DNA of 64,000 nucleotides from an uncultured Verrucomicrobiae bacterium (GTDB lineage Bacteria; Verrucomicrobiota; Verrucomicrobiia; Chthoniobacterales; UBA10450): assembly GCA_963726745.1 (NCBI GenBank), contig CAVSDR010000006.1:832001-896000 (forward strand), read 5' to 3'. This document shows positions 1,836-63,286 of the stretch, in pieces (position 1 is the stretch's first letter; each line of letters opens with the position of its first letter). The notes beneath the pieces were generated by a model, which searched no databases, was not told where the DNA came from, and worked only from the letters and a program-made list of their open reading frames with translations. A program made the translations under genes and the position numbers.

Positions 1836-4800
1836 CCATCCGCCCCCTCGTATTCAGCGTGCTCTTCATCGCCTCCGCGTTCGCGGCTGCGGAAACGCTC
1901 ATCGACCCGGATTTCCGCGCGCCCATTTTCGCGCGCCCGAGCATTCCCCAGCGAGCTCTCCTCCTCTCGGATGGGAAGTATTTTCTCTTTCGCAATCCCG
2001 AGACGCTGGCAATCGGCGCGCCGCGCCTTTGACTCGCTACCTTGGGAACGGCGCGCTTGATTCGTCCTTTCAGTTCACGCGCGATTATCAGGCCGTCGGC
2101 GCGGTGGAGCCGTTGCTCGAATGGCCAGTTCGTCATCGCCGCGACGCATCTATGTTTACAGCGAGAAATTCGGCACGGAGCGAATCCTGCGCATCAACGC
2201 TGATGGCTCGATCGATCCGAGCTTCAACGCAGTCGAGGTCGGCCGGTTCGAAATCGGCTATATCTGGATGCTGACTGCGCAGCCGGACGGCAAAATTTCG
2301 GCAACGGGCTCTTTCCTGAGCTTCGCCGGCAGCTCGCGCCAAAAAATTGTGCGCCTCTGAGCGACGGCAACCTCGACGGCACTTCAATCCGCCGCAGTTC
2401 TCGACCAGCAGCGGGATCTGGGCGCGGCCCATCATTTTGTCGGATGGCAGGATCGTGGTCGCGGGGGATTTCACCACCCTGAATGGAAGCGCGAGCCGGG
2501 GCGTAGCCCGGCTTCTGCCGGACGGGGTGCTGGACTCCTCGTTCACGCCTAGCGGATTTACTCGCGCCGCCGTCATCCGCCGGATCCTGCTCCTGCCTGA
2601 CGACAAGCTCCTGCTCGCAGGCCGATTCTTCCCTATCGGCGGATCCCAAAGCTCCCTTATCCGCCTAACGAGTGGCGGCGCGGCCGACCCAGCTTTTTCC
2701 ATGGCGGCGACGAGCGCGGCAGCGCGCGATGTCGTCCAGCAGAGTGATGGCCGCATGGTCGTCGCGGCCGGAAATTCCCTCTATCGTTACAGCACGAACG
2801 GATCGCCGGACGGCACTTTCACTTTTCACTATTTCGTCGACGCAGCCCAGGATAACTGGAGCTTCGGCACGGCCTCGACGCTTTCGCTCCTGCAGGACGG
2901 TCGAATCTTCGTGGGAGGAAACTTCACGGACGTGGATGTGGCCGGCATAGACCACTTCGGAGTGGCATTGTTCGATGCCAACGGCAACATCGACGCCGGT
3001 CTCCGCACCAGCCATCAAACAGCCAGTGAGCTGGCCCCCACGAGTTTTCGGCGAATGTCCGACGGCTCGGTGCTCACCAGCTTTGGTTATTCGCTCGGCT
3101 TTCTCATGCCCGCGGTTCCCTATAATTTCGCCCGCCTGCAGCTGGATGGGACGCTGGTGCAGGGCGCGGTTCTCAGCACGACGGATCCCGGTAGCACCCT
3201 GAACCAGGGCTTCCGCGCGCGGGAATTCGTCGAGTTGGCGGACGGCCGCCTGTTCACATTCGGCTACGGCAGCGCCGCTTTCTTCGCTAACGGCGCAGAG
3301 GATGAAGGCTTCCGGCTGAATACCCTCATCGACCCGATAAAGGCCTTCGCGCTCCCGGACGCCGGCGTCCTTGTGGTAAGTCAGAGTCAGCCTGTCCTTA
3401 CGCGCCTGACGGCCAGCGGAGGCTCAAACGACCGCTTCGCGTGCGATGCCTCTATCTGATCCGGCCACGGTCATAGTCGATCCGAACTTCGGCGTCACGG
3501 AAGCCTGGCTGGGCCGGCGCGTCCTCGCGATTCAGCCCGATGGCAAAATCCTCTTCATCTACTTTGCCTCGGATTATCTCTTCCACTTCGTTCGTCTGAA
3601 CGCCGATGGCTCACTCGATCCGAGCTTCAATGGCACCACGCTGCCGGCCTTCGACCTGAGCTTCGGGAGCACAAACATCTTCGATCCTTACACCTACTCC
3701 TTTCACGTCCCTGCGAATGGCGAATACGTCGCCAACCGCCGCTCTTTGACGCCGAGATTTTGCCGGACGGCAGGATTCTACTCGCGGGGCGATTCACTTC
3801 CTACGGCGGCCTGCCCGCGCGTGGACTGGTGCGCCTGCTGCCGGATGGAACGGTCGACAACAACTTCAGCGCCGGCGGTGGCGCGCAATGGACCTCGACC
3901 ATGGAAACGGCCGCCCTCGTTCCCGCCGTGGAGCAAATCGAAAAGCAGAACGACGGGACTTTCCTCCTTGGCGGCACCTTTGAAAAATTTAACGGAACGC
4001 CCGCACCAGGCCTGGTGCTGATCCACGGCGACGGCTCGGTCGATTCTTCGCTGTCGCCTGTCCCGGAGCGGAAAAAATTCCGCCGTGGCGTAACCAGCCT
4101 CGACAGGCAGGCGGACGGTTCGTTTCTATTGAGCGGGCATATGCCTTCCCGGGAGAAACAGAGCCGTCATTCATTCACCTTAAAAGCACTGGCGGCGTGC
4201 CTGTGATTGGCAGCGTGCCGCTCGCCACCGCAATCGTCGGCCGGCCGTTCAACTACCGGGTCGTCGCCAGCGGAGAACCGGCCAGCTACAGCGCGAGCGG
4301 ACTGCCCGGCGGATTTACAAAGATCCGCAAAGCGGCGTGGTTTCAGGCGAGGCAACGGGCGCGAATGTAGGCGTGCATTCCATCGTCCTCACCGCCGCAA
4401 ATGCGGAGGGCACCAGCGCCCCGGTACGTGCTAACGCTGACCGTCCCTCCTCTTCCACAATTGCTCGCCGCGGCCTCACGCAAAACACACGGCAGCGCGA
4501 ACACCGACTTTGACATCGACCTACCTTTAACCGGAGCTCTGGGCATCGAATGCCGCGTGGACAACACAGCGGCTCGCTCTTCCTCGTCCTGACTTTCAAC
4601 AACGATGTCTCGGGCGGGACCGCCTCCGTCATGCCGGCGGAGCCACGCTTGCAGCGCAATTTTCGCCGGATGGCCGCCACGCTTTTGTTTCTCTCGACAA
4701 CGTCGCGAATGCGCAGGTCGTGCGTGTGCAGCTCGGCAATGTGAGGGATCGCTACCTGCAACTCATGCCCAATACAGAAATCAGCCTCGGTGTGCTGCGG

Positions 4801-5016
4801 GGCGATGTGAACGGCGATGGCACGGTGAACGTGAGCGATGCACTGGTGACACGTGGACGCTCAGGGAGCGGACTGGATCCGTTGACCTTCCGCGCGGACG
4901 TCAATCGCGATGGCAGCATCAACTCCGGCGATTCCATCGCTGTCCGAAGCCAGTCCGGCACCGGACTGACCCTCGCTGCAGAGCAGGGTTTCGAGAAATC
5001 CGCGCGCAGCCAATAG
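1832..5016 (+). pseudogene. large secreted protein: delta-60 beta-propeller repeats + putative Ig domain + SRKTHG..GIECR domain + dockerin-like C-terminus; multiply frameshifted
   Basis: Pieces in successive frames: signal peptide (1832), QPDGKI/RLNADGSLDPSF repeats, FNYRVVASGEPASYSASGLP (~4240), SRKTHGSANTDFDIDLPLTGALGIECR (~4480), GDVNGDGTVNVSD...ADVNRDGSINSGD (~4800-4930); about 9 frame switches. Confidence 0.7.
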
Positions 5017-5274
5017 GCGATTCGCGCGAGTTCAAAAGCGTGCGCCTTTTGAGGTGCGCCCCTTCCCCACCGGAAGTGCCCGGGTAGAATTAGATCGTCC
5101 GGCAGGTAAAAACGCACCTGCACGGCGGGATGCGCGCATATAGGGTGGATGCGCGCATGCAGGAATATCGTCATGCGTTAGGGAAGGCCGTGCTGCGGGG
5201 CCGCTAGACGACGGCGCCCGCAGAAAAGCACTTGCCACCGCTTCCCCGCGCCGCCGACAGTCGTCGCCTGAAAG

Positions 5275-7161: not shown

Positions 7162-8754
7162 ATGACCCCGCCGAAAGTCCTCATCGCTGATCCCGTTTCG
7201 CCCCGCGGTGTGGAAGAACTCTCGCGCGACGGCGCCCTGGAGGTGCTCTTCAAGACCGGCCTCACGGAGGCGGAGTTGATCGAGCTTATCCCAAGTTTCC
7301 AGGCGCTCGTGGTCCGCAGCGAAACCAAGGTGACCAAGGCCGTGCTCGAGGCCGCGCCGCAGCTGCGCGTGGTCGGTCGCGCCGGCGTCGGGGTGGACAA
7401 TGTCGATGTCGACGCGGCCACCCGCCGCGGGGTCATCGTGATGAACGCACCCGGCGGTAATACCGTCTCGACCGCAGAGCACGCTTTCTCGCTCCTCCTC
7501 TGCGTCGCGCGCAAAATCCCGCAGGCCGACGCCATGGTCCGCACCGGGAAGTGGAGCCGGAAGGAATTCCAGGGCGTGGAATTAAACAACAAGTCGTTAG
7601 GCATTATCGGCATGGGCCGGATCGGGAGCGAGCTCAGCCGGCGCGCGATCGCCTTCGGGATGCGCGTGCTTGCCTTCGATCCCTACCTCTCCGCGGCCCG
7701 TGCGCGGGCCTTGCAGGTGGAGTTAATGGACGACCTCGGCGAGCTCCTGGCGCGGGCCGATTTCATCACTTTGCACACTCCGCTCACGCCCGAGACGCAC
7801 CACGTGCTCAACGCCACGCGGCTGGCGCAGACGAAGCGGGGCGTGCGGATCATCAACTGCGCGCGCGGCGGCTTGATCGACGAAGCGGCTTTAGCCGACG
7901 CTTTGCGCAGCGGGCAGGTGGCCGCAGCCGCGCTCGATGTTTTCGAGACCGAGCCGCTGCCTAACGACTCCTTCCTCCGCGAAATCCCGAACCTGGTGCT
8001 GACCCCGCACCTCGGCGCTTCGACCGCAGAAGCGCAGGAAAGTGTGGGGATCGAGATCGCGGAATCGATCCGGGCCGCGCTCCTCGAAGGGACAATCCGC
8101 AACGCGGTCAACATGCCGAATCTGGATGCGAAGACGCTCGCGGTCATCGGGCCGCACCTCGCCTTCGGCGAAAAGCTCGGGCGTTTCCTCTCGCAGCTCG
8201 CGCCCCAGCATGTCGACTATTTAAACATCAACTACAGCGGGAAGGTGAACGAAGTCGATACCACTGCGATCACGCGTTCGGTCTTGAAAGGCTTCCTCCA
8301 AAAAGCCGGCGGGATCGAGGTCAACGAAGTCAACGCGCCGGCCTACGCCGAAAGCCGCGGACTCAAGATCACCGAGACGCGTCTGAGTGCGGTCGGCGAT
8401 TACAGCGACCTGCTCGAGCTCTCCGTCGGGACGACCGGCTCGAGTGTTTCCGTGGCCGGTGCCTTCTTCGGCGCGACGCCGCGGATCGTGAACATCAACG
8501 CCCGCCCGGTGGAAGCCCGGCCGCACGGCGTCGTCCTCGTGCTCGAGAACAGCGATCGCCCCGGCATCGTCGGCCGCATCGGCACGCTCCTCGGCGACCA
8601 CGGGGTCAACATCGCCACCATGTCGCTCAGCCGGAACGAAGCCGGTGGGACCGCACTTACCGTGCTCAACCTCGACACGGTCCCCGACGCCGATTTGCTG
8701 GCCACGATTCGCGGCAGCGAAGACATCCGCTCGGCGCAGGTCATCCAGCTCTAG
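7162..8754 (+). CDS. serA: D-3-phosphoglycerate dehydrogenase (with ASB and ACT domains)
   Basis: VRSETKV, GRAGVGVDNVD, GMGRIG, INCARGG, TPHLGAST, DRPGIVG. Confidence 0.95.
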   Translation: MTPPKVLIADPVSPRGVEELSRDGALEVLFKTGLTEAELIELIPSFQALVVRSETKVTKAVLEAAPQLRVVGRAGVGVDNVDVDAATRRGVIVMNAPGGNTVSTAEHAFSLLLCVARKIPQADAMVRTGKWSRKEFQGVELNNKSLGIIGMGRIGSELSRRAIAFGMRVLAFDPYLSAARARALQVELMDDLGELLARADFITLHTPLTPETHHVLNATRLAQTKRGVRIINCARGGLIDEAALADALRSGQVAAAALDVFETEPLPNDSFLREIPNLVLTPHLGASTAEAQESVGIEIAESIRAALLEGTIRNAVNMPNLDAKTLAVIGPHLAFGEKLGRFLSQLAPQHVDYLNINYSGKVNEVDTTAITRSVLKGFLQKAGGIEVNEVNAPAYAESRGLKITETRLSAVGDYSDLLELSVGTTGSSVSVAGAFFGATPRIVNINARPVEARPHGVVLVLENSDRPGIVGRIGTLLGDHGVNIATMSLSRNEAGGTALTVLNLDTVPDADLLATIRGSEDIRSAQVIQL

Positions 8755-8809
8755 CCGCTTCGCGAAATTCCGCTTCCGCTTCCGGCGACAGTTCGTTAGC
8801 CTGCGCCTC

Positions 8810-9070: not shown

Positions 9071-9133
9071 GCGTCCACTCGTTAGGCCAAGGCTGGCGCT
9101 TGCCAAGCGGCGGCCGCGGTGCGCTCGTGGCCG

Positions 9134-10093
9134 ATGCAGCAGCAGCGGCCATCCCGTGCGGCGATCCTCCTGGCGTTCGCCTCGCTTTACGTCATCTGGG
9201 GTTCGACCTACCTCGGCATCTTGCTGGCTATCCGCACGATCCCGCCGCTGCTCATGGCCGGGACGCGCTTCCTTCTCGCGGGCGCGATTCTCTATGCGGC
9301 GGCGCGCTTCACCGGGGCCGCCCGGCCGCGGCTGATCGAGTGGCGCACCGCCTGGATCGTAGGCGCCTGCCTTCTGCTCGGGGGCAACGGCGGGGTCACG
9401 CTCTCCGAGCAATACATTCCCACCGGCCTGGCCGCGCTCCTGGTGGCCACGGTCCCGCTTTACATCGCGCTCTTGAGCTGGGCCTTCGGGCTGACCGCGC
9501 GGCCCGGACGCTGGACGCTTATCGGATTAGCCGGCGGCTTCCTTGGGGTCGGCGTGCTCGTGGGGCCGGCGGTGCACTTTTCCGGCAGCGCGGCGGACAC
9601 GCGCGCCTGGGTCGGGATGGTGATCCTGCTTTGCTCCTCCTTCATCTGGTCGGCCGGCTCGCTCTACTCCCGGCAGGCGCCGAGCGCTTCCTCGCCTTTC
9701 CTCGCCGCCGGCCAGCAGATGCTCTGCGGCGGCGGCTCGCTCATCGCGGTCGCCTTGGTCAAGGGCGAGTGGGCGCAATTCCACCCAGGAGCGATCACCC
9801 TGGTTTCGTTAGGGGCGTTCCTCTACCTGGTCTTCATCGGAGGAATCATCGGTTACGCCTCCTACGCCTGGCTTCTGCGCTACTGCGATCCCGCAAATGT
9901 CTCCACTTACGCCTACGTCAATCCGGTGGTCGCGATCCTGCTCGGCTCGGTTTTCCTCGATGAAAAACTCAGCCTGCGCATCCTCGTGGCCGCCTTCCTG
10001 ATCATCGCCTCGGTCGCGCTCATTATTACTCGCGGCAAAGTGCGCGCAAAACGCGGCCAACTAATCGCCGGCAAACCCGTGCCCGCGGCCTAA
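9134..10093 (+). CDS. EamA/DMT family transporter (YedA-like)
   Basis: YVIWGSTY, RFLLAG, YAYVNPVVA; about 10 TM helices. Confidence 0.9.
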   Translation: MQQQRPSRAAILLAFASLYVIWGSTYLGILLAIRTIPPLLMAGTRFLLAGAILYAAARFTGAARPRLIEWRTAWIVGACLLLGGNGGVTLSEQYIPTGLAALLVATVPLYIALLSWAFGLTARPGRWTLIGLAGGFLGVGVLVGPAVHFSGSAADTRAWVGMVILLCSSFIWSAGSLYSRQAPSASSPFLAAGQQMLCGGGSLIAVALVKGEWAQFHPGAITLVSLGAFLYLVFIGGIIGYASYAWLLRYCDPANVSTYAYVNPVVAILLGSVFLDEKLSLRILVAAFLIIASVALIITRGKVRAKRGQLIAGKPVPAA

Positions 10094-10097
10094 CGAC

Positions 10098-12659
10098 TCA
10101 TTCCGTGCGCAGCGCGGCCATCGGGCTGATCCGCGTGGCCCGGCGCGCCGGGAGCCAGGTGGCGAGCAACGCCGCCGCTGCGAGCACCAGCGGCGCGAGG
10201 GCAAAGGCCAACGGGTCGAACGCGCCCACTTCGTAGAGAATGCCGGCTAATAATTTGCCGGTTGCGGCCGCCAGGAGCAGCCCGAGGACAATTCCGCTCG
10301 CAAGCATCACCAAACCTTCGCGCAGGATCATCCATTGCATGGTCTCGCGCCGCGCGCCCAGCGCCATGCGGATGCCGATCTCGCGCGTGCGCCGCGCGAC
10401 CGAATACGCCTTCACGCCGTAGACGCCGACGACCGCAAGCCCGAGCGCGACCAAACCGAAAACGCTGAAGAGCGTCGCGCCCGCGCGCACCAGCCAAAGC
10501 TCGATGTTCGCCTCGAGGTGTTGCGCGAAAGTTTTGAGCGACAAGATCGGCAGCACGCTGTCGACCTGGCGCACGGCGCGCCGGATCACATCGGCCGTCG
10601 CGGTCACGTCGCCCGCCGCGCCGGGGGCAAAGCGCAGATGAAAAAAGACGTTTCCCTGGTAACCGCCAGCGAAAGGCAGGTAGATCGCGCCCGGCGGATT
10701 TTTCTCGAACAGGCTGTGGCGCGCATAAGGCACGATGCCGACTACCTCGAGCACGCGCGTCGTTTCCACACTCTCGGCCGCCCCAGCTTTAGCCGACACT
10801 TTCTCCTTCTCGGTAGACTGAATTTGCTGCCCGAGCGCGTCACCGTCCGGCCACAATTTCTTTGCAAGGACTTCATCGATGATCGCCACTCGCGGCGTCG
10901 CTTCGTGCATCGCCTCCGCGGCGGAAAAAGCGCGGCCGCGCCGGACGGGTAATCCGACGGTCGCGAAATAATCCGCGCCCACGCTGTTCAAGTTTGCGCT
11001 GAAGGCGAGGCCCTCCGCGGGCGTGGCCGGTTTCGCGTCCGCCGGCGGATGAACACCGCCGCGTTGGATTGATTTTCGGATCGTGACCATGCCGAACGGA
11101 ACCACCCCGGCGATGCTGGCGTGTTCCACACCCGGAAGCGCCGCGAGGCGTTCCTCGAGCTGGCGGTAGAGATCCATCCCGCGTGCTTGATCGTAACCCG
11201 CGAGGCTGGCGTCGACTTCGACCAGGAAATTCTGCTCCGTCTGCAAGCCGGTCTTGACCGAGGCGGCTTTGAAGGCGCCCCGGATGAAGAGCGTGGCCGC
11301 GGTCAGGAGCGCGAGCGAAAAGGCGATTTGCACGACGACCAGCGGGTTGCGCGGAAGAAATTTCCAGCGGCGGCGGACCGCGTCTTCGCCCGGATGTTCC
11401 TTCAGATCGCCCAGGACGGCGCCGCGCGAGATTTTCATCGCCGGGCCGAGCGCAAAACCGAGCGTGCCGAGCACGCAAAAGCCGAGAGTGGCCAGCAGGA
11501 TGGAAGAGTCCAGGCCACCAGCCCAGACGAGGTCGAAGGGCATCATCCGGCCTAACGAGGCCACGAGCAGATCGGACGACCAGAGGCCGAGGAACAAGCC
11601 GCCCGCGCCGCCGGCGAGCGCGAGGACGAAACCTTCCACGAGCAGTTGCCGCACAATTCGCCAGCGGCTCGCGCCGAGCGCAAGGCGGACGGCAATTTCC
11701 TTCCGCCGCGCGGTCCCGCGCGCCAGGAGCATGTTGGCTAAATTCAAACAAGCCACGAGCAGGACGACCGCCGCCATTCCGAAAAGCAGCGGCCCGAGCG
11801 CGCTCACCTCGCTGTCGCTCGAAGGCGCCGTGCTTGTCCCGAGACGCGAGAGCGGCGCGGTCATGAACGTCTGGTCTTTTTGCTCCACCGGAAACGCCTG
11901 CTCGAGATTGGCCGCGAGCGTCTGCAAGGCCGGCGCGGCGGCGGCGGCGGTGACCCCGGCTTTCAGGCGTGCGATCAGGAGCAGCTGCTGGCCCGCGCGA
12001 TCGTCCAAGGTCGTGCGGGTGGAGGATTGGAAATCGCTTTCGAGTTGCTCGTAGACGCCGAGCGGCACCCAGATTTCCGGCGAGAAAAGATTCATCGTGC
12101 CGGTAAAACCGGCCGGCAAAATCCCAATGACCGTGAAGGGCCGGCCGTTGACCTGGATCTCTGAGCCGAGGAGCCCGGGCGAGAGCGCCTGTTTTTGCCA
12201 ATAGCGGTAGCTGACGATCGCGACCGCGGCCTTGCTCCCGGGCTTCTCTTCCTCGTCGGTGAAGGTGCGCCCCTGGATCGGCGCGACTCCGAGAACGCTG
12301 AAGTAATTCGACGAAACGATGTCGGCGAAGGTCCGGCGCGTGTTCCCCTGCTCGCCCACGCCGACCATCGCGAGATTATGCGCGAGCACGCCAGCGAAGA
12401 CGGAGTTTTGCTCGCGCAGATCGCGATAGGTCGGGTAGGAAAAACCGCGAAACTTCTTCGGGTCTTTCCGGTCCTGCGAAAAGATCTGCACGATCTCCTG
12501 CGCCTGCGGATAAGCCGGCGGCCGCAGGAGCAAGGTATCGAGCAGGCTGAAGATGGCTGCGTTCGCCCCGATACCGCAGGCGAGGACAAGAATAGCCGAC
12601 AAGCTGAAGGCCGGCGCCTTCAGCAATTGCCGCACGGCAAAACGCAGGTCGTTGATCAT
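10098..12659 (-). CDS. duplicated MacB/FtsX-type ABC permease (ADOP-like, no adjacent ATPase)
   Basis: DLRFAVRQLLKAP, GIGANAAIFS, ACLNLANMLLAR...EIAVRLALGA, RTREIGIRMALGA, PARRATRISPMAALRTE. Confidence 0.9.
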   Translation of the reverse strand: MINDLRFAVRQLLKAPAFSLSAILVLACGIGANAAIFSLLDTLLLRPPAYPQAQEIVQIFSQDRKDPKKFRGFSYPTYRDLREQNSVFAGVLAHNLAMVGVGEQGNTRRTFADIVSSNYFSVLGVAPIQGRTFTDEEEKPGSKAAVAIVSYRYWQKQALSPGLLGSEIQVNGRPFTVIGILPAGFTGTMNLFSPEIWVPLGVYEQLESDFQSSTRTTLDDRAGQQLLLIARLKAGVTAAAAAPALQTLAANLEQAFPVEQKDQTFMTAPLSRLGTSTAPSSDSEVSALGPLLFGMAAVVLLVACLNLANMLLARGTARRKEIAVRLALGASRWRIVRQLLVEGFVLALAGGAGGLFLGLWSSDLLVASLGRMMPFDLVWAGGLDSSILLATLGFCVLGTLGFALGPAMKISRGAVLGDLKEHPGEDAVRRRWKFLPRNPLVVVQIAFSLALLTAATLFIRGAFKAASVKTGLQTEQNFLVEVDASLAGYDQARGMDLYRQLEERLAALPGVEHASIAGVVPFGMVTIRKSIQRGGVHPPADAKPATPAEGLAFSANLNSVGADYFATVGLPVRRGRAFSAAEAMHEATPRVAIIDEVLAKKLWPDGDALGQQIQSTEKEKVSAKAGAAESVETTRVLEVVGIVPYARHSLFEKNPPGAIYLPFAGGYQGNVFFHLRFAPGAAGDVTATADVIRRAVRQVDSVLPILSLKTFAQHLEANIELWLVRAGATLFSVFGLVALGLAVVGVYGVKAYSVARRTREIGIRMALGARRETMQWMILREGLVMLASGIVLGLLLAAATGKLLAGILYEVGAFDPLAFALAPLVLAAAALLATWLPARRATRISPMAALRTE

Positions 12660-49151: not shown

Positions 49152-49700
49152 CCGATTACTTCGCGCTGCTCTCGCAGCCGCGCGGCCCGTGGCTCGATCC
49201 GGAGGAATTGAAGGAAGGCTTTCCATGCGCGTAGCCGGCAACTTCATCCCGACGTGAGTGGGAAGGCGGGCGAATTCGCGGAGGTGAACGAAGCCTACCA
49301 GGTGCTGCGCGAACCAAAGCGCCGCTTGCAGCATTTGCTTGCGCTCGAAGATGCCGAGCCGCCGCGCGCTGCCGCGGTCCCGAGGGAAATTGCCGACCTC
49401 TTCCCGCGCGTGGCCACGCTGATGCACGCCGCCGCAGCCGCGCTCGAGCAGCGCGCCCGCGCGGGCAACGCGCTTAACATCTCGCTGGCTAAAACGGCGG
49501 CGCTGCAGACCGGCGGCGAGATTGCCGCGCAACTCGAACAACTCCGCGCGCAGCAAGCCGCCGCGTTGGAGGAGTTGCGCCAGCGAAGCCATGGCTGGGA
49601 GGCACAGCTCCCGGCGTTGCAGCAGCTCTACCTTGCGCTCTCCTACCTCACACGCTGGATCGCGGAGCTGGAGGAAAAAGCGCTCCAACTCGCGAATTAG
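49148..49700 (+). CDS. HscB-like J-domain co-chaperone; frameshift near 49218
   Basis: MTDYFALLSQPR.PWLD.EELKE, then next frame FHARSRQLHPD...VNEAYQVL..P..RL.HLL. Confidence 0.75.
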
Positions 49701-49706
49701 CCAGCA

Positions 49707-49720
49707 CGTTCATTTGAACT
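49707..49720. promoter_or_regulatory. putative LexA box upstream of lexA
   Basis: CGTTC-ATTT-GAACT, 2 mismatches to TGTTC-N4-GAACA. Confidence 0.55.
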
Positions 49721-49753: not shown

Positions 49754-50392
49754 GTGCTCACCGAACGCCAGCAAGACGTGCTCGGCTTCATCCAGTCCGA
49801 ACAACGCGAACGCGGTTTCACCCCCAGCACGCGCGAAATCCAGAAGCATTTCGGCTTCGCCAGCCAGACGTCGGTCATGCAATACCTCGACGTCCTGCAG
49901 CGGAAAGGCTTTCTCGATCGCCACGCGCGCAAGGCCCGCGCCTTGATCACGCCGGTCTCGAAGGTGCGCATCACGGACATCCCGATCTACGGCCAGATTC
50001 CCGCGGGCATGGCCACGGCCACGGAGGAGGCGATCGAGGGACACATCTCGCTCGATGCGCGCACGGCCAATACTTCGAAAAACAGCCGCACGTTCGCGCT
50101 CCGCGTGCGCGGCGATTCCATGATCGAGGCGCATATTTTAGACGGCGACTTGGTCATCCTCGAGGACCGGAAGGAAGTGCAGAATGGCGACATCGTGGCG
50201 GCCTTGATCGATGGGGAGACGACCTTGAAGCGCTACGTGGTCGATCACGGCCGCCCGTATTTGAAGGCGGAGAATCCGCTCTACCCGGACCTCGTGCCGG
50301 CGCGGGAGTTGCGCATCCAGGGCGTGATGGTCTCGCTGGTGCGCCAGCAGGCCGCGCCGCAGCGGGCCGCGCGGCGCAAAAGCGCTGGCTAA
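49754..50392 (+). CDS. lexA: SOS repressor LexA
   Basis: LTERQ..VL.FI, P.TREI wHTH, IPAG cleavage site, RVRGDSM and TTLKR catalytic Ser/Lys. Confidence 0.95.
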   Translation: MLTERQQDVLGFIQSEQRERGFTPSTREIQKHFGFASQTSVMQYLDVLQRKGFLDRHARKARALITPVSKVRITDIPIYGQIPAGMATATEEAIEGHISLDARTANTSKNSRTFALRVRGDSMIEAHILDGDLVILEDRKEVQNGDIVAALIDGETTLKRYVVDHGRPYLKAENPLYPDLVPARELRIQGVMVSLVRQQAAPQRAARRKSAG

Positions 50393-51696: not shown

Positions 51697-54220
51697 TTAG
51701 CCAGCGAGATTCGGATATTTCGCGCGCAACTGCTGCGTGGCGCGAGCCGCTTCAGCCTGGTTGCCGGCTTTTTGATACGCGGCCGCGGCTCGCTGCAAGG
51801 CCCTCGGCGTGATCGCCGGGTCGTCGTAAAGCAAGGACACGCTCATGAAAGTTTTCGCCGCCTCCTCGAAAGCCCCGCGTTCAAACTGCACTTCGCCCGC
51901 GAGGAGGCGAGCTTCCGCGTTCACTTTCCCCTCCGGCTGCAGGCTCATGATTTCCTCGGCAATCCGCTGCGCTTCCTCCGGTTTGTGCGCTGCGATCTTG
52001 GCCGCGCCGAGCGCGATCAAGGTCTTGGCGCGCGCCGCCGGATCGCTCGTCGTTTGCAGGTAGCGTTCGTAAGAGCCTTCGGCATCGCTCACCTTGCCGG
52101 TCTTCATCTGCGCATCGGCCAGGTAGAACCAGAAATCCGCGTTCACATTCGAGCCTTCGTTCGCGCCCAGGGCGCTGAGGTATTTCTCGGCCGCGGCGTA
52201 GTTCTTCTCGTTGTAATAATCCAGCCCGAGCCACTGCAGGATTTCGCCAGGAATCGGCGCTTCGCGGCCGCTGGCGAGGTATTTGTCGACTTCGCTCGTG
52301 AGCGCGGCGCGGTTTTTTTGGTAAAAATAAGCAGAGATGATCCGGACCGTCGCGGGGGTGTAATACTGCTCCGCGTTCAATTTCCGCGCAGCCTCGAGCG
52401 CGGCGATCGCCGGCTTGTAGTCCTTCGCCTCGAAGGCCGCCTTCCCGATGTAATACTGCGCCTGTGCCGCGGCCTCGGTCTTCGGATATTCCTTCAGCAG
52501 CTGCGCAAAAGCGGCCGACATCGCCTTGTCGTTTTCCTGCTGGCCGAGGAGGAGCGCCTTTTGTTGCAGCGCGCCTTCGCGCTCGCGCGCTTTTGGGTAG
52601 CTCTTGATCAAGGTATCGAGGTCGGCGATCGCGGCGTCGAAGTTCTTCGTCTCCTGGTAGGCCAGCGCGCGCTGGGTGAGCGCGCTCGGAGCCTGCGGGT
52701 TGTCGGCAAAAGCCTTCAGGAAATAGCTAAAGGCATCGATAATCCGCAGCGGATTCTTGAGCTGCACGTAACACCAGCCAGCTTTGTAAGCCGACTCTGC
52801 GCGCAGCTTGGCCGAAAGCTGGGAAGCGCGCAGCGTCTCATAGAGCGGCGCGGCCTCGGCGAAATTTCCCTGGCGATAAAGCGCCTCGGCTTTCAAGAGC
52901 CGCGCCTGGTCGGCCCGTTCGCCGCTCGAGTTGCTGGCTAAATACTCGTCCACCTGCGCGACCACCGCCGCGGGATCGGCGTTGTAGACATTGATCAAGC
53001 GCTGGTAACGCGCGTCCTTCGCTTCTTCGCGCGCAGGGATATTTCTCGATGATCTGGGCGTAGAGTGCCTCCGCTTCCGGGCCGTGGCCGAGCTGGCGCT
53101 GGCTGTTCGCTGCGTAGAGCATCATCTCCGCGCGGGCGTCGTCTGGCAGGTCGTCGCCCGCGCGTTTCCATTCCGTGAGCACCTGCTGGAATTGCCCGCC
53201 GGAATAGAGCACCCGGAGGAGGCCGGTGGCCGCGAGCCCGCGCCATTTCCCGGCCTCGGCTAACGAGCGGCCTTTTTGCAAGAGCGCGACTGCTTTTTCC
53301 GAGAGCGCTTTGTTGCCCTTCTCGCCTTGCGCGAGGTCGGCCGCAATCAAGCCGGCGCGCACGGTCGCCTCGGCTTTCAAAGCGGCCTTGCCGGTTTCGT
53401 TTGCCAGCGCCTCGTATTGCTTCAGCGCCTCCGCTTTGCGCCCGCGATTGAAAAGGATCGAGGCCGCGGCGGAGCGCGAGTCTTCGCGGAAAGGATTCGG
53501 GTCCTTCGCCTCGATCACCTGCAGGTAAGCGGTCGCGGCTTCATCCTTGCGATCGAGATTTTCCAGCGAACGCGCCTCGAAATAGCGCGCCGACAAGGCC
53601 AGGCCGGGCTCCTTCGTCTTCGCTGCCGAGCGATGAAATTGCGCCAGCGCGCCGGCGTAATCTTTCTGGTTAAAAAGAATCTCGCCCACGCCATAGGCCG
53701 CCGGCCCGGCAAACTCACTCTCGGAAAAATCAGCCAGCACACTCTGGAAAGCAGTCCGCGCCGGCGCGGTGCGGTTCTGCGCGCGGTAGGCTTCGGCGAG
53801 GTAAAAGAACGCGCTCGCGCGGCCGGACGCATTCGGGAATTGGCCGAGGAACTTCTCGTATTCCGGAATTGCGAGATCGTAGAGCTTGCGATTGAAGAGC
53901 GCGTTCGCGTAATCGAGCTGGCGCTGGTCGGCCGCCTCCGGTTCCGGCCCTTCGCTCGCCGCGGGCTCGCTCCGCGGCGTAGCCGGCTCCTCGGGCGCGG
54001 GCACCGGAGTGGAGCGCGGAGTGGGCGCGGGCGTAGCCACCGGCAACGGGGTGGCCGCCTTGCGCGGGGTCGACTCCTCCACCGGAAGCGCGCGGCGCAC
54101 GGGCGGCTCGTTCACCGGCTGGGCCCGGCGAATTTCCGGGGCCGCCTGCGCCTGCCCCCAGGCACTCGTTAGGCAAAACGCCCACGCGAGCACGCCCAGG
54201 GCGCTCGTGCGCCAGTTCAT
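51697..54220 (-). CDS. periplasmic TPR-repeat protein with Pro-rich N-terminal linker; frameshift near 53035
   Basis: Signal peptide, Pro/Thr/Ala-rich segment, many TPR motifs over two consecutive frames. Confidence 0.85.
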
Positions 54221-55525: not shown

Positions 55526-57514
55526 CTACGCGAAACGCCCGTCGCCTAACGAGCGCCGCACGCGGAAGACATGCGCCGGGCGCGTGTCTGGATGGAGCTC
55601 GACATAATTCCGGCTGCCCTGCCAGGTGAAGCGCTCATCGGTCAGGAGATCGTGCACCTGATACGGCTCAGTCTCGCTCAGGCCCATCTCCGCCAGCGGG
55701 ACGTGAATGTAGGAATGGTGCGCCATGAAGGCGTCGAGGTTCACGACCACGAGGATGAGGTTGTCTTTCGCCGGTGTCAGCTTGCCGTAAAAGAGGATGT
55801 TCCCATCGTCCGCCTGGTAGAACCGCAGGTTGTCGTAGAGATGCAGCGCGCGATTCTCGCGGCGGATTTGGTTCAGGCGTGCGAGGTAATTCTTGATGTT
55901 GCCGGGCGCATCCCAGTCGCGCTCCTTGAGCTGATATTTCTCGCTATCGAGATACTCTTCGCGTCCAGGAAGAGGGGCATTTTCGCAGAGCTCAAAGCCG
56001 CTGTAGATGCCGTAGACGCTCGAGAGGGTGGCCGCGAGGACGGCGCGAATCATGAAGGCGGGGCGGCCGCCTTCCTGCAGGTGCACCGGCAGAATATCCG
56101 GCGTGTTCGGCCAGAGATTGCCGCGAAAATACTCGCGCATCTCCGTCTGCGTGAGCTCGGTGAAATACTCGATGAACTCCGCCTTGGTGTTCCGCCAGGT
56201 GAAGTAGGTGTAGCTCTGTTGGAAGCCAGCCTTAGCCAGCGCTTTCATCATCTTCGGCTTGGTGAAAGCCTCAGAAAGGAAGATGACGTCGGGAAATTTC
56301 GCGCGCACCTGGCCGATCAGGTATTCCCAAAACGCCACCGGCTTGGTGTGTGGATTATCCACCCGGATGATGCGCACACCCTGCTCTGCCCAGAAGAGGA
56401 TGATGCTGGTCATCTCGTCCCAGAGCTCCTGCCAGTTCGAGCAACGGAAGTTCAGCGGGTAGATGTCCTCGTATTTCTTCGGCGGGTTCTCGGCGTATTT
56501 GATCGTGCCGTCGGGGCGCTTGTAGAACCACTCGGGATGCGCCTCGACATACGGGTGATCGGGCGAGCAATTGATCGCGAAATCGAGCGCCACTTCCATC
56601 CCGCGCGCGTGAATCTCGCGCTGCAGCCAGGCGAAATCCTCCAGCGTGCCTAACGAAGGCTCCACGTCCTTGTGCCCGCCGCCATTGGGCGCACCGACGA
56701 AGCGGTTCCCGATCGCGTAGGGCACGCCCGGTTCGCCCGGCTGGCTGGTCACGGAGTTGTTCGCGCCTTTGCGATTGGTCATCCCAATCGGGTGGATCGG
56801 CGGGAAATAAATCACGTCAAAGCCCAGGGCCTTTGCGTAATCGACCCGCGGGAGGCAATCGCGGAAGGTCGACCCGCGATCCGCGTGGCCCTCGGCCGAG
56901 CGCGGGAAAAATTCATACCAGGCCGCGGTGCGCGCGCGCACCCGGTCGACCGTGACCTGCGGATGCGGCGCGTATTGCGTCGAGGCCGAACGATCCGGGT
57001 AAGTTGCCATCAGGATCTCGAGCTCGCCGGAGTGAGCCAGCTCGTCGATCTGCGCGTTCTCGCTCGTGCGGATGATCTCCGAGAGCTCCCCGAGCCGCCG
57101 CCCATCGGCGGTCTCGCCGGCCCGGAGCGCGGCCGCTTCGATCAAGGCCGCGCCTTCCAGCGCCTCGCTCGTCAGGTTGGCGATGCCGGCCTTGAACTTG
57201 GCACCAAACTCGTGCTGCCAGCCCGCGAACGTGTCCGCCCAGGCTTCCACGGTGTATTCGTAGGTCGCGTTTTCGAAGAGGGAACAGACGCCGCGCCAGC
57301 GATCGTTCCCGAGATGGGTCATCGCGGTTTCGTGCCACTGCGGCTCGCCGAGCTGGCGCCATTTCAGCCGGGCCGCGACCACATCGTGGCCGTCCTTGAA
57401 GATGTCGGCCTCGACCTCGAGATCTTCGCCCACGACCCGCTTGACCGGGTAACGCCCGCCGTCGATCAACGGCTGCAGATTCTCGATAACGGCGGTGGGA
57501 AAGGCCCGGAGCAT
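55526..57514 (-). CDS. glgE: alpha-1,4-glucan:maltose-1-phosphate maltosyltransferase
   Basis: WYEFFPRS, PPIHPIG..NRKG.NN, CSPDHP, YAENPPKKYEDIYP, RVDNPHTKP, FLSEAFT, NTPDIL. Confidence 0.95.
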   Translation of the reverse strand: MLRAFPTAVIENLQPLIDGGRYPVKRVVGEDLEVEADIFKDGHDVVAARLKWRQLGEPQWHETAMTHLGNDRWRGVCSLFENATYEYTVEAWADTFAGWQHEFGAKFKAGIANLTSEALEGAALIEAAALRAGETADGRRLGELSEIIRTSENAQIDELAHSGELEILMATYPDRSASTQYAPHPQVTVDRVRARTAAWYEFFPRSAEGHADRGSTFRDCLPRVDYAKALGFDVIYFPPIHPIGMTNRKGANNSVTSQPGEPGVPYAIGNRFVGAPNGGGHKDVEPSLGTLEDFAWLQREIHARGMEVALDFAINCSPDHPYVEAHPEWFYKRPDGTIKYAENPPKKYEDIYPLNFRCSNWQELWDEMTSIILFWAEQGVRIIRVDNPHTKPVAFWEYLIGQVRAKFPDVIFLSEAFTKPKMMKALAKAGFQQSYTYFTWRNTKAEFIEYFTELTQTEMREYFRGNLWPNTPDILPVHLQEGGRPAFMIRAVLAATLSSVYGIYSGFELCENAPLPGREEYLDSEKYQLKERDWDAPGNIKNYLARLNQIRRENRALHLYDNLRFYQADDGNILFYGKLTPAKDNLILVVVNLDAFMAHHSYIHVPLAEMGLSETEPYQVHDLLTDERFTWQGSRNYVELHPDTRPAHVFRVRRSLGDGRFA

Positions 57515-59513: not shown

Positions 59514-60395
59514 TCAATCGGCAACCGGCGGGAGCGGCACGATTTCCACCGTGGTCGCAGTCTCGCCGGCGCGCGCTTCCAATCGCGTCCCCGGCTCCCA
59601 GAAACCGCGCTTCACAAAACCGAGCGCACGCCGCTGTCCCGCGCTCGCGCTCGCCGCCACGCTTGTGAGCCATCCGGTTTCCCGCTCGCCGCTCCAGAGC
59701 TTCCAGCCCGCGCCTAACGAGTCCCCGGCCGCGGCCTGCAGGGCGCAGAGGCGCTTGTTCGTCTGGCCGGACATCTTGATCCGCGAGATCACTTCCTGCC
59801 CGATGTAGCAGCCCTTCGCGTAGTCGATCGTGCTCGCCTCGAGGTTCGCCTCGTTCGGGATGATCTCGTCGGTTAATTCCGCGCCCCAGCGCGGCCGCCC
59901 CCGCTCGATTCGCCATTCCTCGGCTGCAGCCTCATCCAAGAGCGGGAAAATGCTGGCTAATTTTTCCACCGCCGCCGCCCGCTCCGCGCGCGGCAGCCAA
60001 AGGTCCAAGCCCGTGGCGCCGAAACGATTTGCCTGCACTTTCAGCGCCGTCGACGGGAGCGTCTCCCCCGGATCGCCTAACAAGTGCAAAAGCGCATAAG
60101 CCTCAGTCACGTCCTCCACCTGCACGTCATCCGCGATGATGTAACGCTCCAGCCGCGCGCTCAGCGCCTCGGCCAGGCCCGGGTCGCTATCGAGCAGAAA
60201 CGATTCGCCCTCGGGCACGATGAAGACCTCCGCGTTGATCTTGCCCTTCGCCGTCAGCACGCAGGCATGGAGCGCGCGCGCGGCGCTCGCTTTGCGCAGG
60301 TCGTTGCTGATCTGGCCGTTTAAATAGCGCACACGATCCACGCCGGAGAGCCGCAGCTTCGTCCGCGCAGAAAGATCGAAGAGCGCCCGCTCCAC
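59514..60395 (-). CDS. ygfZ: YgfZ/GcvT-like folate-binding protein
   Basis: KGCYIGQE signature, G.DR..YLNGQ.SND. Confidence 0.88.
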   Translation of the reverse strand: MERALFDLSARTKLRLSGVDRVRYLNGQISNDLRKASAARALHACVLTAKGKINAEVFIVPEGESFLLDSDPGLAEALSARLERYIIADDVQVEDVTEAYALLHLLGDPGETLPSTALKVQANRFGATGLDLWLPRAERAAAVEKLASIFPLLDEAAAEEWRIERGRPRWGAELTDEIIPNEANLEASTIDYAKGCYIGQEVISRIKMSGQTNKRLCALQAAAGDSLGAGWKLWSGERETGWLTSVAASASAGQRRALGFVKRGFWEPGTRLEARAGETATTVEIVPLPPVAD

Positions 60396-60398: not shown

Positions 60399-61535
60399 CT
60401 AGTAATCCGCTCCGCGGCTGAAGATCCGGCTCAAGAACCCGCGCGGCTCGACTTCCTTTTTCTCTTCCGGTTTGGCTTCTGCAAGGGCGGGCGGCGCTTC
60501 CTCCGTGGCCGCTGCCGTCAGCATCGGCGACTCGTTAGGCAGCAACTCGATCTCCTCCACGTCCGGTTCAGCTTCGGGCTCCGGCGCCGCTTCCGGCTCG
60601 CTTTCCGGATCGGCTTCCACCGGTTCTTCCACCGGCTCGGGGTCCGCGGCTTCCTCTTCCATTAACGGCAGACTCGGCGCCGGTGCCTCGGGAAAATATT
60701 GCCGCATCACCGCGGAGTAATCGGCCTCGCCGCCGCCGTCGTTCAACTCATCGCGCAAGACATCGCGCGCCACCTCGGTCACGCCCAGGCGCAGGCCAAG
60801 ATCGCGCCCCATCCGCGCCGCGAGCGTCGCGTCTTTGAGCATGTGCTTGACCGAAAAATGCGTGTCGAATTCGCGGTCAATCATCTTCGGCAACTTCATC
60901 GTGAGCGTGCCGGAGTTGGACCCGTTCGAGCGCATCGCGGCGGCAAATTTATCCAGCGGCACCTGCGCGCGATCCACCAGCGCGAGCGCCTCCGCGGCCA
61001 CCTGCACCGTGGCCGCGGTGATCATATTCGTGGCCAGCTTGATCGTCGTCGCCTGCCCCACTTCCCCGATCTCGAGGATCTCCTTGCTGCTTGCTTCCAG
61101 CACCGGACGCGCGCGCCGGTAGGCCGCCTCATCGCCACCGATGTAGTAGACTAATTCCCCGCGACCGGCCGCTTCCTTGCTCCCGGTAAAGGGCGCGTCG
61201 AGCAGTTGTCCGCCGCGGCGCGCGACCAAATCGGCAGCCTCGCGCATCGTCTCCGGCGCGACTGTGCAATGCGCCATGACCACGTGGTGCGCGCTCAGCG
61301 AGGGCTTCATCGCGCCGATCATTTGCAGCAGCGCCTCGTCATTGGAAACGAAGATCTGCACGAAGTCGCAGAGCTCGGCCAGCTCCGCCGGCGAGCCGAC
61401 AAAATTTGGGAAAGGCCGCGGCGTGCGGTTCCAGACGAAGACGTGAAAACCGCGCCGGCGCAGGCAATCCGCCACCCGTTGACCGATGATTCCGAGACCG
61501 ATAACTCCGACGTTTTTTTGGGTGCGACGCGACAT
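60399..61535 (-). CDS. NAD(P)-dependent oxidoreductase, 3-hydroxyisobutyrate dehydrogenase family, with acidic C-terminal extension
   Basis: GVIGLGIIG, VWNRT, DAPFTGSK, KLATN, F...HMLKD. Confidence 0.88.
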   Translation of the reverse strand: MSRRTQKNVGVIGLGIIGQRVADCLRRRGFHVFVWNRTPRPFPNFVGSPAELAELCDFVQIFVSNDEALLQMIGAMKPSLSAHHVVMAHCTVAPETMREAADLVARRGGQLLDAPFTGSKEAAGRGELVYYIGGDEAAYRRARPVLEASSKEILEIGEVGQATTIKLATNMITAATVQVAAEALALVDRAQVPLDKFAAAMRSNGSNSGTLTMKLPKMIDREFDTHFSVKHMLKDATLAARMGRDLGLRLGVTEVARDVLRDELNDGGGEADYSAVMRQYFPEAPAPSLPLMEEEAADPEPVEEPVEADPESEPEAAPEPEAEPDVEEIELLPNESPMLTAAATEEAPPALAEAKPEEKKEVEPRGFLSRIFSRGADY

Positions 61536-61595: not shown

Positions 61596-62384
61596 CTACT
61601 TCCGCTCGGGCCCGCGCGCCGCCAGCTCCGCCACCGCCGCGGCCCGTTTGGCATTCGCTAGCTCCGCCGCGAGCTCCGGCCGCGCCTCCGCGAAATCCAC
61701 CTCCCGCGCTGGGCGCACTTCCGCGAGCTGCACGATGTGAAAGCCGAGCGGCGAACGGAAAGGCGACGAGAATTCGCCCGGACGAAGCTTCACGATTTCC
61801 GCGAAAAACTCCGGCGGCAAACGCTCGTCACTGAGCCAGCCCAGATCCCCAGCGCGCGCTTTGCTGGCCGGGTCCTCGGAGTTTTCCGCGATCAATTTGC
61901 TCCAATCCTCGCCAGCCAAACGGCGCACCGAGAGTCCAAGGATTTTGTTCAACTGCGCCGTCACCACCTCCGGCTTCGTGCCAGTGGGGGCGGCCAGGAA
62001 TAGATGCGCCACGCGATATTCCGCCGGGCGCTGGAAACGCTCCCGTTGCGTTTCGTAGGCCGCGCGCAGCTCCGTCTCGTCGACCAGGAGCCGTGGCGCG
62101 ATCTTCTCCTCAATGGAAGCGCGCGCGCTCAAGTTGTCGGCTATTTCTCGTTCGAGCGCTTCCGGCGAAAGGTGCGAGGCCCGCCGCGCCGCCGCCAGGC
62201 CTTCCTCTCCGCCGAAAGCTCCGCGCAACAAATCGAGCTCGCGCTCCACCGCCGCGGGCGCAACCACTTCCGCCGGCCCGCTCCTGGCGTGTGCGCGCCA
62301 AGCTCTCACCAGCACCTCGCCGCTCCCCCAACCCAGCACCGCCGCGAGCACGAGCAGGACAAAAACTTTCCCGCCGCGCCTCAC
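61596..62384 (-). CDS. parvulin/PpiC-type peptidyl-prolyl isomerase
   Basis: HLFL, SED..SK..AGDLG, S.PFRSPLGFHIV; N-terminal TM/signal. Confidence 0.88.
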   Translation of the reverse strand: MRRGGKVFVLLVLAAVLGWGSGEVLVRAWRAHARSGPAEVVAPAAVERELDLLRGAFGGEEGLAAARRASHLSPEALEREIADNLSARASIEEKIAPRLLVDETELRAAYETQRERFQRPAEYRVAHLFLAAPTGTKPEVVTAQLNKILGLSVRRLAGEDWSKLIAENSEDPASKARAGDLGWLSDERLPPEFFAEIVKLRPGEFSSPFRSPLGFHIVQLAEVRPAREVDFAEARPELAAELANAKRAAAVAELAARGPERK

Positions 62385-63286
62385 CGGAAAGCGCTCTCGA
62401 CCAGGAAACGCGCCGCGACTTTGCCGACCGTGGCCAGGCTCTCCGCGCTCAACTTATCCATCGTGTCCGCGGGCGTGTGCCAGGGCGGATACTCAAAATC
62501 GATCAGGTCGATCGTCGGAATGCCGGCCTGGTTGAGCGGCGTGTGATCATCGAGAATGCCGCCGCGCGCATAGGTAAAATGCTGCCGCAAGCCGAGCGCC
62601 TCGGCCGCGTGAAAGATTCCCAGGGTGAGCTGGCTGGGGGAATCCGGTGGCAGCGTGATCCCGAGTGATGCATCGCCCACCATGTCGAAAAGGATGCCGC
62701 CGCGGAATTGTTTTGCCTGCCCCGTCTTCACCAAGTCGCTGGCAAAATACCGGCTGCCGTAGAGCCCATCGGTCTCGGTGAAACTAACGAACGCTTCCTC
62801 ACCATCGAAGAAGACCAATTGGATCTTCCGCGCCAGCTCCGGATGCGGCGCAAGCACCCGCGCCATTTCCAAGAGCACGCCGTTGCTCGAGCCGCCGTCG
62901 TTCGCTCCCACGAAGCGCTCGTGCGCGAAGAACTTCGTGTCGTAGTGCGAGCAAAGCAGAAAGGTGGGCGCGCTCTTCCCGCCGGGGAAGGTGGCGATGA
63001 GGTTGACGAAATTCCGCGGGCCTTGCGGGGTTTCGTCGGTGAACGCCTGCCGTTGCACTTCCCAGCCGGCGGCGACTAGTTGCTCCGTCAGGTAAACGCG
63101 GGCGGCTTCCAGTTCCGCGCTCCCGACCGGGCGCGGGCCGAGGTCGACCAGCCGTTGCACGTCCTGCAGGGCGCGTTCGCCGGAGAATTGTTCCCAGATC
63201 GCCGGCCCGACGGCCTCGGCGTTTTTGCCGTGGCGGTCGCAGGCGGCCAGCGCGAGGGTGAGCGCCAGGAGAACGCGCAGAGTCAT
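62381..63286 (-). CDS. M28 family lipoprotein, glutaminyl-peptide cyclotransferase-like
   Basis: Lipobox LAAC; SHYDTK, GANDGGS, FFDGEEA, LYGSR, DMVG, DDHTP, WHT..D. Confidence 0.85.
   Translation of the reverse strand: MTLRVLLALTLALAACDRHGKNAEAVGPAIWEQFSGERALQDVQRLVDLGPRPVGSAELEAARVYLTEQLVAAGWEVQRQAFTDETPQGPRNFVNLIATFPGGKSAPTFLLCSHYDTKFFAHERFVGANDGGSSNGVLLEMARVLAPHPELARKIQLVFFDGEEAFVSFTETDGLYGSRYFASDLVKTGQAKQFRGGILFDMVGDASLGITLPPDSPSQLTLGIFHAAEALGLRQHFTYARGGILDDHTPLNQAGIPTIDLIDFEYPPWHTPADTMDKLSAESLATVGKVAARFLVESAFR

Follow-up and report, generated by a model that had tools for sequence, protein, structure and literature searches.

The window analysed here, a 64-kb stretch of G000, the metagenome-assembled genome of an uncultured soil bacterium, carries 22 copies of the non-palindromic 9-mer GCCTAACGA, which we refer to as word A herein. 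Two lie in serA, at 7594..7602 (−), where the word encodes S-L-G and most relatives have T-L-G, and at 7959..7967 (+), where it encodes L-P-N-D and the commonest form is L-P-A-D. Others lie in a wzc-like gene (33984..33992, +; G-L-T-N) and in dnaE2 (38191..38199, −), and at 10088..10096 (+) the TAA within the word is the stop codon of a transporter gene ending at 10093. The remaining plus-strand copies are at 2663..2671, 11550..11558, 15854..15862, 16715..16723, 24187..24195, 26955..26963, 40472..40480, 41884..41892, 55544..55552, 56648..56656 and 59712..59720, and those on the minus strand at 9079..9087, 13290..13298, 23316..23324, 24640..24648, 54166..54174 and 60532..60540. An 8-base form, CCTAACGA, is found at 9806..9813 (−) and 22172..22179 (+), and the core CTAACGA at 8793..8799, 37826..37832 and 41047..41053 (all −) and at 13919..13925, 47731..47737, 53260..53266 and 62784..62790 (all +). 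The original prediction had placed 24 sites of CCTAACGA or its complement TCGTTAGG in the window, 15 on the plus and 9 on the minus strand, with 22 of the 24 extending to word A and seven further CTAACGA. All 24 coordinates proved exact, the orientations and extensions were upheld, the seven cores lay where claimed to within 1 base, and the SerA KSLGII (7594) and Wzc GLTNY (33984) sites matched their earlier description. While the over-represented word itself was correctly recognized, its identity with the integron crossover core was overlooked, as was a second word in the window, TTAGMCRRCRMNWTS (word B). This occurs in 16 strict copies, at 1623..1637, 7891..7905, 10789..10803, 15059..15073, 23748..23762, 30649..30663, 42652..42666, 49697..49711, 50138..50152 and 56232..56246 on the plus strand and at 19791..19805, 38410..38424, 41262..41276, 44460..44474, 45102..45116 and 49478..49492 on the minus strand.

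Dinucleotide shuffling of the window (100 shuffles) gave a mean of 0.26 copies of word A and a maximum of 2. Across G000, an assembly that is 94.7% complete and has some frameshifts, we found 1,312 copies (681 +, 631 −), where an order-3 Markov model predicts 19.7. About 74% of copies lie wholly inside genes. Called genes hold 972, compared with a mean of 21.4 after 10 within-gene synonymous codon shuffles, and so the enrichment survives the codon-preserving shuffle under which the original prediction had allowed that it might vanish. Word A is used in four coding frames and both stop frames as well as in spacers, it encodes 449 of the 768 S-L-G tripeptides, and its flanks show no conserved longer unit among the genome-wide copies. 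Its density is 2.5–15 per 100 kb where local (window) GC is below 61% versus 42–63 where GC exceeds 63%, low-GC islands being poor in the word. A list of the genes with the highest counts hinted at enrichment in DNA-repair genes. Short-read contigs from one public run (X1), which contained a fraction of 0.18 of the sampled words, covered the stretch in short pieces and too thinly for single sites to be judged. The frameshifts of a metagenome assembly might suggest an assembly or base-calling artefact. However, word A is not a base-calling artefact, because hundreds of independent assemblies are rich in it, many of them split into hundreds of contigs. Its presence in 348/355 independent assemblies and the codon shuffle refute both an artefact and an origin in codon or peptide bias, to which we assign a negligible probability; the variety of frames used, four coding and both stop, and the copies in spacers also stand against them.

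Base substitutions have introduced word A into genes and spacers alike, and in genes it changes amino acids. SerA reads KTLGI or KTLGV in 64/80 sequences, and all 7 KSLGI variants have word A at this place. At orthologous positions in word-rich relatives the word was identical at 23/47 and 62/150 sites (41–49%) versus ~6% expected, and at 0/46 sites in G116 (unpublished), a relative without word A. Most non-identical orthologous sites differ by at least 3 bases in relatives. The proposal of a selected or driven signal at the level of DNA is supported by these forced amino-acid changes, by the conservation of orthologous sites and by the codon shuffle.

The Chthoniobacterales family to which relatives of Ca. 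Udaeobacter belong has more than 35 copies of word A in 348/355 genomes, with numbers ranging from 13 to 4,633 per genome; among other Verrucomicrobiota, 0/249 genomes were enriched. Ca. Udaeobacter is among the most abundant soil bacteria. The GTTAGGC core is hyper-abundant in contigs of a second phylum too, in the Gemmatimonadaceae. Word B is abundant in only 2/355 genomes of the Chthoniobacterales family, G000 and G116, and arose in two separate lineages, without following the tree. In three related prophages, the density of word A follows that of the host: prophages in hosts at ~44 per 100 kb carry 21 copies in 26 kb and 24 in 40 kb, and one in a host at 3.6 per 100 kb carries 2 in 38 kb. 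Viral matches were mostly isolated pairs. Genome G002 contains TTCATCTGT repeats, which we take to be a clustered repeat.

The consensus of integron core sites is GTTRRRY. Word A matches the crossover core at the attI and attC sites of the family (CTCG|TTAG-GC) in every letter, down to the spacer bases CTCG. G000's own attI and 12/12 attC in its array share CTCG|TTAG as an unvarying crossover, and 10/10 family attI sites examined end in it. Read on the bottom strand, the word comprises the 6-base R-box arm plus three spacer bases past the cut, GCCTAA|CGA. Cassette ends vary in their last two bases (GC, AT, GT, AC), and the last two bases of word A are two of the three positions that tolerate change in the genome. 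Purine changes permitted by GTTRRRY at two other positions were not enriched (0.1x and 0.5x), and the double variant TCGTTAGAT had 0 copies in genes. Word B in turn resembles the integrase-binding arms of attI: its weight matrix picks an attI arm at p<0.035 in 8/12 sites, and two arms of one sister-family attI score no lower than the median B site. Neither a partner L box nor a hairpin accompanies the dispersed copies of word A; an inverse core lay upstream of 3.75% of 400 sites versus 6.25% of controls, and an inverted partner box at 6 bp was found at one site genome-wide, the true attI. An intact intI is absent from the 94.7% complete G000 assembly, which has only a remnant together with XerC and XerD. 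The gene is present in 17/37 family genomes and in 12/24 genomes of sister families, which lack dispersed word A.

With the replichores of G000 set by third-position skew, word A showed no bias of orientation relative to replication (516 versus 466, 52.5% vs 47.5%, p=0.12; this genome alone). Across two large contigs, C3 and C6, it showed neither helical phasing nor 5–150 kb periodicity, and the HIP1-type periodicity of 10–90 kb was likewise absent. Inverted terminator pairs were also absent, with 5 opposite-strand neighbours at most 100 bp apart among 1,312 sites. G000 contains 31 pairs less than 200 bp apart, a third of the 93 expected, in every orientation, and 15 versus 46 under a peptide-preserving null. 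This short-range exclusion was absent in G236, the densest genome tested (234 pairs vs 221 expected); even spacing was seen in G000, weak in G230 and absent in G236. Words A and B did not avoid each other in G000. A polar exclusion zone, in which convergent pairs are avoided further than divergent ones, was seen in G000 and was unreplicated in G236; pooled data at 200–400 bp gave 95 versus 106 (p=0.48), and the idea was dropped. The shortage of close pairs in G000 fits the statement that two DUS lying near each other do not raise transformation (PMC2397512).

G000 encodes ComEC, DprA, PilB/GspE-like, PilC-like and PilT proteins, secretins and 18 prepilin matches, and ComEC is found in 60/63 genomes, with or without word A. 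No match to Pfam ComP above the cut-off was obtained among 23 pilin-like references scanned (two proteins were scanned twice, in part and whole), the best reaching 20.4 bits with a cut-off of 27.3. The stand-alone pilin with a weak ComP match is fast-evolving, but we rejected it as the reader of word A since its predicted fold is GspG-like; its model weakly matched GspG-type pseudopilins, with no ComP among the matches listed. For ComN, whose search relied on the prepilin-family models, only weak N-terminal matches were obtained. A nuclease-HhH gene resembling ComEA is truncated as well as split in G000 and carries a frameshift in G116 (unpublished). It was not found in 20/22 genomes of one genus holding word A and is present in 35/36 genomes of a low-density genus, and with no clean correlation to the word it was set aside; its Atlas neighbours were all Verrucomicrobiota where known. 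Also rejected were a PilX-like gene, for which a search of five word-rich genomes gave no match; pilin P0001, present in 44/63 genomes, word A or not; pilin P0002, in 19/36 family genomes and 14/24 others; and the major pilin, whose homologue list was uninformative. A dif site (one look-alike in G000, 0 in 5 relatives) and IS110 or another IS as reader (none found) fared no better, nor did a REP/MITE or IS target repeat, as there is no multicopy element of at least 400 bp and no conserved flank unit, and the copies are mostly in genes.

In function, word A most likely resembles a DNA uptake sequence, raised by a DUS/USS-like drive through biased uptake, an explanation that we favour while giving it slightly less than half of our belief. 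The cells would be transformable and the bias would act at uptake, where a putative receptor would prefer incoming DNA bearing word A; through recombination of kin DNA carrying it, the word would then become more frequent throughout the chromosome and its prophages. Points in favour of uptake are the excess in genes over codon shuffles, the SerA variants, the conserved orthologous sites, the low density at low GC, the lack of bias by replichore, the shortage of close pairs in G000, the prophages that follow their hosts, and the competence and pilus genes present. The receptor's taste for the integron core may be adaptive, with gene cassettes being fished from soil DNA, and the chromosomal copies may be a by-product of cassette fishing. 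Word B would be a second specificity, gained independently. Its likeness to integrase arms counts against uptake, since a receptor at the cell surface would hardly need to read such arms. Further points against uptake are the lack of ComP and of terminator pairs, the broken ComEA-like gene in G000 and G116 and its scarcity in a genus holding the word, the failure to find the PilX-like gene in five word-rich genomes, the occurrence of ComEC regardless of the word, the lack of short-range spacing in G236, and the lack of mutual avoidance between A and B.

Word A could instead be the binding site of a cytoplasmic protein, such as a nucleoid organiser, an SMC unloader or a guard of self-DNA against a nuclease, with about one site kept per DNA stretch. 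We regard this as possible, if doubtful. Conservation and amino-acid cost show that the word is maintained whatever its reader, an intracellular mark would be consistent with the copies in prophages, a footprint could explain the short-range exclusion, and genomes whose ComEA-like gene is broken or was not found still have word A. A range of 13 to 4,633 copies within one family would, however, be odd for a structural site, helical phasing and 5–150 kb periodicity were absent from the two large contigs, and no candidate protein was found. It is unlikely, though worth weighing, that an integron-integrase-type recombinase reads word A and joins incoming kin DNA to the chromosome there. Exchanges would be initiated more often by donors that have the best arm, which would stay behind afterwards, so that the word would spread half by half. 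Such an enzyme would account for the R-box arm and spacer bases shared with 10 attI and 12 attC, the coincidence of variable cassette-end bases with two of the three tolerant positions, the likeness of word B to attI arms and the abundance of the same core in a second phylum. Integrases are also reported to act on double-stranded genomic attG sites with hotspots of GWT plus CRGM at positions 6–9, a motif that word B's CAGC form fits (10.1101/2022.09.11.507474). Yet G000 has no intact intI, and the gene occurs in half of the sister-family genomes, without the dispersed word, and in only 17/37 within the family; the dispersed sites have neither partner L box nor hairpin, and the permitted purine variants are not enriched. 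Moreover, insertion of cassettes into genes should select against such sites, and no drive of this kind has been described.

Word A might also arise without benefit from a bias in mutation or repair, such as conversion of near-matches directed by methylation, as proposed for HIP1. A converting process would likewise yield stable, conserved sites, the exclusion is absent in G236, and a motif scan saw only type I methyltransferase-like fragments. We nevertheless consider such a bias improbable, since several substitutions, along with amino-acid changes, are required for many gains, with relatives at least 3 bases off at most non-identical sites, the short-range exclusion in G000 cannot come from independent mutation, and the word is not palindromic.

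We tentatively suggest that two unrelated soil lineages may use the integron recombination core as a genome-wide address, either via a cassette-end receptor that catches integron DNA from the soil and drags the word into the chromosome or via an integrase-type enzyme that uses thousands of half-sites as joints for swaps of kin DNA; word B would be the same again, twice, with integrase arm sequence. A self-tag in the Ca. Udaeobacter family, with the same core in Gemmatimonadaceae, would if true revise the view of what limits and steers gene flow in soil. The match to the integron site offers, for the first time, a concrete candidate for where such a word comes from, and it is testable with one oligonucleotide. 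As density ranges more than 100-fold within the family and word B arose twice, there are natural contrasts for finding the reader. Word A also assigns phages to hosts.

Among the comparisons originally raised, DUS is the best fit, whereas HIP1 fails on palindromy and periodicity and Chi/KOPS on replichore bias. Chi and KOPS are short, non-palindromic, over-represented words that likewise occur in temperate phages; word A differs in having no replichore bias. HIP1 of cyanobacteria is likewise hyper-abundant, conserved in and between genes and, as described in PMC5861425, of unsettled function, but word A is not a palindrome and has no long-range periodicity. Sequence-specific uptake is, according to PMC7811141, described for only two proteobacterial families. 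The USS of Pasteurellaceae, with a 9-base core and ComN/PpdA as predicted receptor, resembles word A in being a non-palindromic 9-mer with weak flanking preferences, in numbering hundreds to over 1,000 per Mb on both strands and inside genes, in its scarcity in acquired islands, and in its family-wide range with variants (PMC7811141, PMC12616744, PMC6776037); USS also accumulate in temperate phages (PMC6776037). The two differ in sequence; word A lacks close inverted pairs, the search for its receptor gave none, and it is the integron core and shares that core with an unrelated phylum. The DUS of Neisseriaceae, read by ComP, is likewise conserved at orthologous positions far above background and has few single-mismatch forms, although 35–42% of its copies lie wholly in genes, compared with ~74% for word A, and its dialects differ from word B, which appears off-tree in two separate lineages (PMC2397512, PMC3630211). 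Word A again lacks the terminator pairs and a ComP above cut-off, and Simonsiella offers a precedent for two words in one genome (PMC3630211). Unlike attI and attC, dispersed copies of word A have no hairpin, inverse core or partner box, and G000 no intact intI; attG, as characterized in 10.1101/2022.09.11.507474, has a consensus of only GWT and a short motif and is not described there as enriched. At the crossover, however, the letters of attI and attC are identical to those of word A, word B is like the attI arms, and chromosomal integrons are described as fed by transformation (PMC12614218).

Recounting word A, the dispersed 9-mer GCCTAACGA (spelled TCGTTAGGC on the opposite strand), reproduced both the counts and the coordinates given for the window in the original prediction. 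The assembly holding the window, G000 (3.41 Mb, 7 contigs), groups by its SerA relatives with Chthoniobacterales assemblies including Ca. Udaeobacter, in a family we take to be UBA10450. GCCTAACGA is its most enriched 9-mer, with 1,312 copies versus 19.7 expected. Placed on our own calls of 3,112 genes, 965 copies lay within genes, 182 were intergenic and 165 spanned a gene end, and the TAA or TAG of the word supplied the stop codon of 195 genes. Codon shuffling lowered the coding copies from 972 to 21, and the 7-base core held 313 of 1,353 CTA codons and 673 of 2,907 TTA codons. Density was lower in low-GC windows, the longest word-free stretches were polysaccharide islands, and G000 showed neither replichore bias nor periodicity of the word. 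Pairs closer than 200 bp were depleted threefold in G000 and were not depleted in 600 kb of G236, the densest genome tested.

The window also carries an error-prone polymerase gene dnaE2, lexA and an imuA-like gene (37829-40456 and 49754-51168), with a DinG-family helicase between these segments (44031-46013). A 12.8-kb near-duplicate (97%) at contig ends (C1:1-12,776 and C6:1,022,417-1,035,158) probably reflects either overlap within the assembly or variation between strains.

Across 355 genomes of the family, 11 of them flagged unpublished, word A numbered 13 to 4,633 copies and exceeded 35 in 348. Sister families held 1 to 35 copies (24 genomes, 15 families), and the clusters there were attC ends of cassette arrays. 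GCCTAACG reached at most 72 copies in any of 249 other Verrucomicrobiota genomes versus 1,346 in G000. One tailed-phage contig, carrying 15 copies within 15 kb, proved to be a family prophage, relatives of which occurred in 3 of 211 genomes at word densities tracking the host. When aligned DNA of about 73% identity was compared, with about 6% expected by chance, G000 sites were identical at 23/47 positions in word-rich congeners, 62/150 in another word-rich genus, 12/89 in word-poor congeners and 0/46 in the unpublished family genome G116. In an alignment of 80 SerA proteins, from G000 and from 79 of 80 loci, carriers of word A show residues dictated by the word: 7 of 7 carriers had KSLGI where most others had KTLG, and at further sites carriers had LPND/E versus LPAD and RLTK versus RLAK. 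The population-level signature points to a word that either spread through biased inheritance or was maintained by selection. In the SerA tree, the contig L035, titled Nitrospirota, sits within the Ca. Udaeobacter clade and is therefore probably mis-binned.

A metagenome contig scan covering 1 of 64 parts yielded 119 loci, of which the 39 of at least 4 kb were analysed. Several high-GC contigs unlike the family had 11-18 copies of GTTAGGC per 10 kb, present on both strands and not part of attC sites; two copies per locus were preselected by the query. Two of these (23/29 and 17/22 TTAG words) encoded proteins in 90% clusters named Gemmatimonadaceae; protein clusters gave no taxon name for three more. 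The phage-like viral contigs L360 and L365 had 21 and 25 GTTAGGC in 20 and 19 kb, strongly one-stranded (20:1 and 20:5). Among the matches listed in our literature search, which covered few subscription papers, neither GCCTAACGA nor over-represented GTTAGGC was described, and there was no match for an over-represented DNA uptake sequence in Verrucomicrobia, natural transformation in Udaeobacter or an uptake sequence in a Gemmatimonad; k-mer survey tables in supplements could bear on novelty. The comparison drew on PMC7811141, PMC12616744, PMC6776037, PMC3630211, 10.1101/2022.09.11.507474, PMC2397512, PMC12614218 and PMC5861425.

A second word, word B (TTAGMCRRCRMNWTS), had 635 strict and 2,021 broad copies in G000, with 488 strict copies in genes versus 7-9 after shuffling. 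Only G000 and G116 (= G061) were rich in it among the 355 genomes, all others having at most 18 copies. G116 held 312 copies of a variant spelling and stood near the family's low end for word A; every statement on this second lineage and its frameshifted ComEA-like gene depends on that unpublished genome. Since the two genomes belong to different genera and almost never share sites, word B likely arose twice. G011, G015 and several genus g26 genomes showed a slight excess (10-18 copies versus 2-11 in controls), perhaps a seed state before the two expansions. The few word A copies of G116 were concentrated on a handful of contigs (L305-L309), which may be mis-binned or a recent gain from a word-rich relative. 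G002 (L270-L274) had a further over-represented word, TTCATCTGT/ACACAGATG, with 16 copies in 100 kb, which may be a clustered repeat.

Word A matches the crossover core of integron recombination sites. G000 has its own cassette array (C6:736,300-745,300, - strand), in which an attI is joined by 12 or more attC of 119-127 bp but no integrase gene lies alongside; a degraded piece of an integrase gene is found at C2:58,600-59,200 together with remnants of attC. The sites of the array all end CTCG|TTAG, followed by GC (5), AT (5), GT (1) or AC (1), as do 10/10 family attI found beside an integrase and one of two in sister families. TCGTTAG is the invariant part of these ends and the nearly invariant part of word A, and the preceding C matches the favoured flank in G000 (62% G after GCCTAACGA). 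Single changes were tolerated at the second base (C to T, 26x) and at the final two positions (7-18x), others reaching at most 2x; transition bias could explain the commonest substitute but not which positions tolerate change. In 8 of 12 attI regions the word B matrix picked an arm (p<0.035), usually lying some 50 bases upstream of the crossover; two B-grade arms were present in one attI. The attG motif figure (S8) of 10.1101/2022.09.11.507474 could bear on this match. A direct role of an integrase-type reader is rather unlikely: dispersed word A copies lack a hairpin or partner box, the G000 assembly has no intact intI, and 12 of the 24 sister-family genomes, all without the dispersed word, carry intI. 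That word A is the binding site of a cytoplasmic protein is also rather unlikely, and the chance of a new, integron-derived system is modest.

We tentatively favour accumulation driven by uptake, at a little under an even chance, because biased uptake is the sole proven mechanism with the whole signature, prophage tracking included; we infer each step from signature to uptake. ComEC (60/63 genomes), DprA (5/5), secretins (5/5), PilT and PilB/PilC-like genes were present, and none of them distinguished genomes with the word from those lacking it. A nuclease-HhH fusion was the only ComEA-like gene found; in G000 it is broken up between two contigs (C4:17,230-17,874 and C2:230,178-230,270), leaving a separate nuclease and a truncated HhH remnant; in relatives the secreted fusion gene is intact beside uvrD. 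Two paralogous minor-pilin operons of three genes, with a PilX-like (DUF7305) tip gene, also occur in G000 (C3:584,422-586,936 and C6:623,578-626,133); within the family such operons are unevenly distributed, often in several copies, and in 21 of 24 sister-family genomes none was found. None of the receptor candidates examined survived. Word A is real and not explained. Because neither ComP nor terminator pairs of the word were found here, it does not qualify as a DUS or USS proper, but it behaves as those sequences do and would accumulate, like them, through biased DNA uptake.
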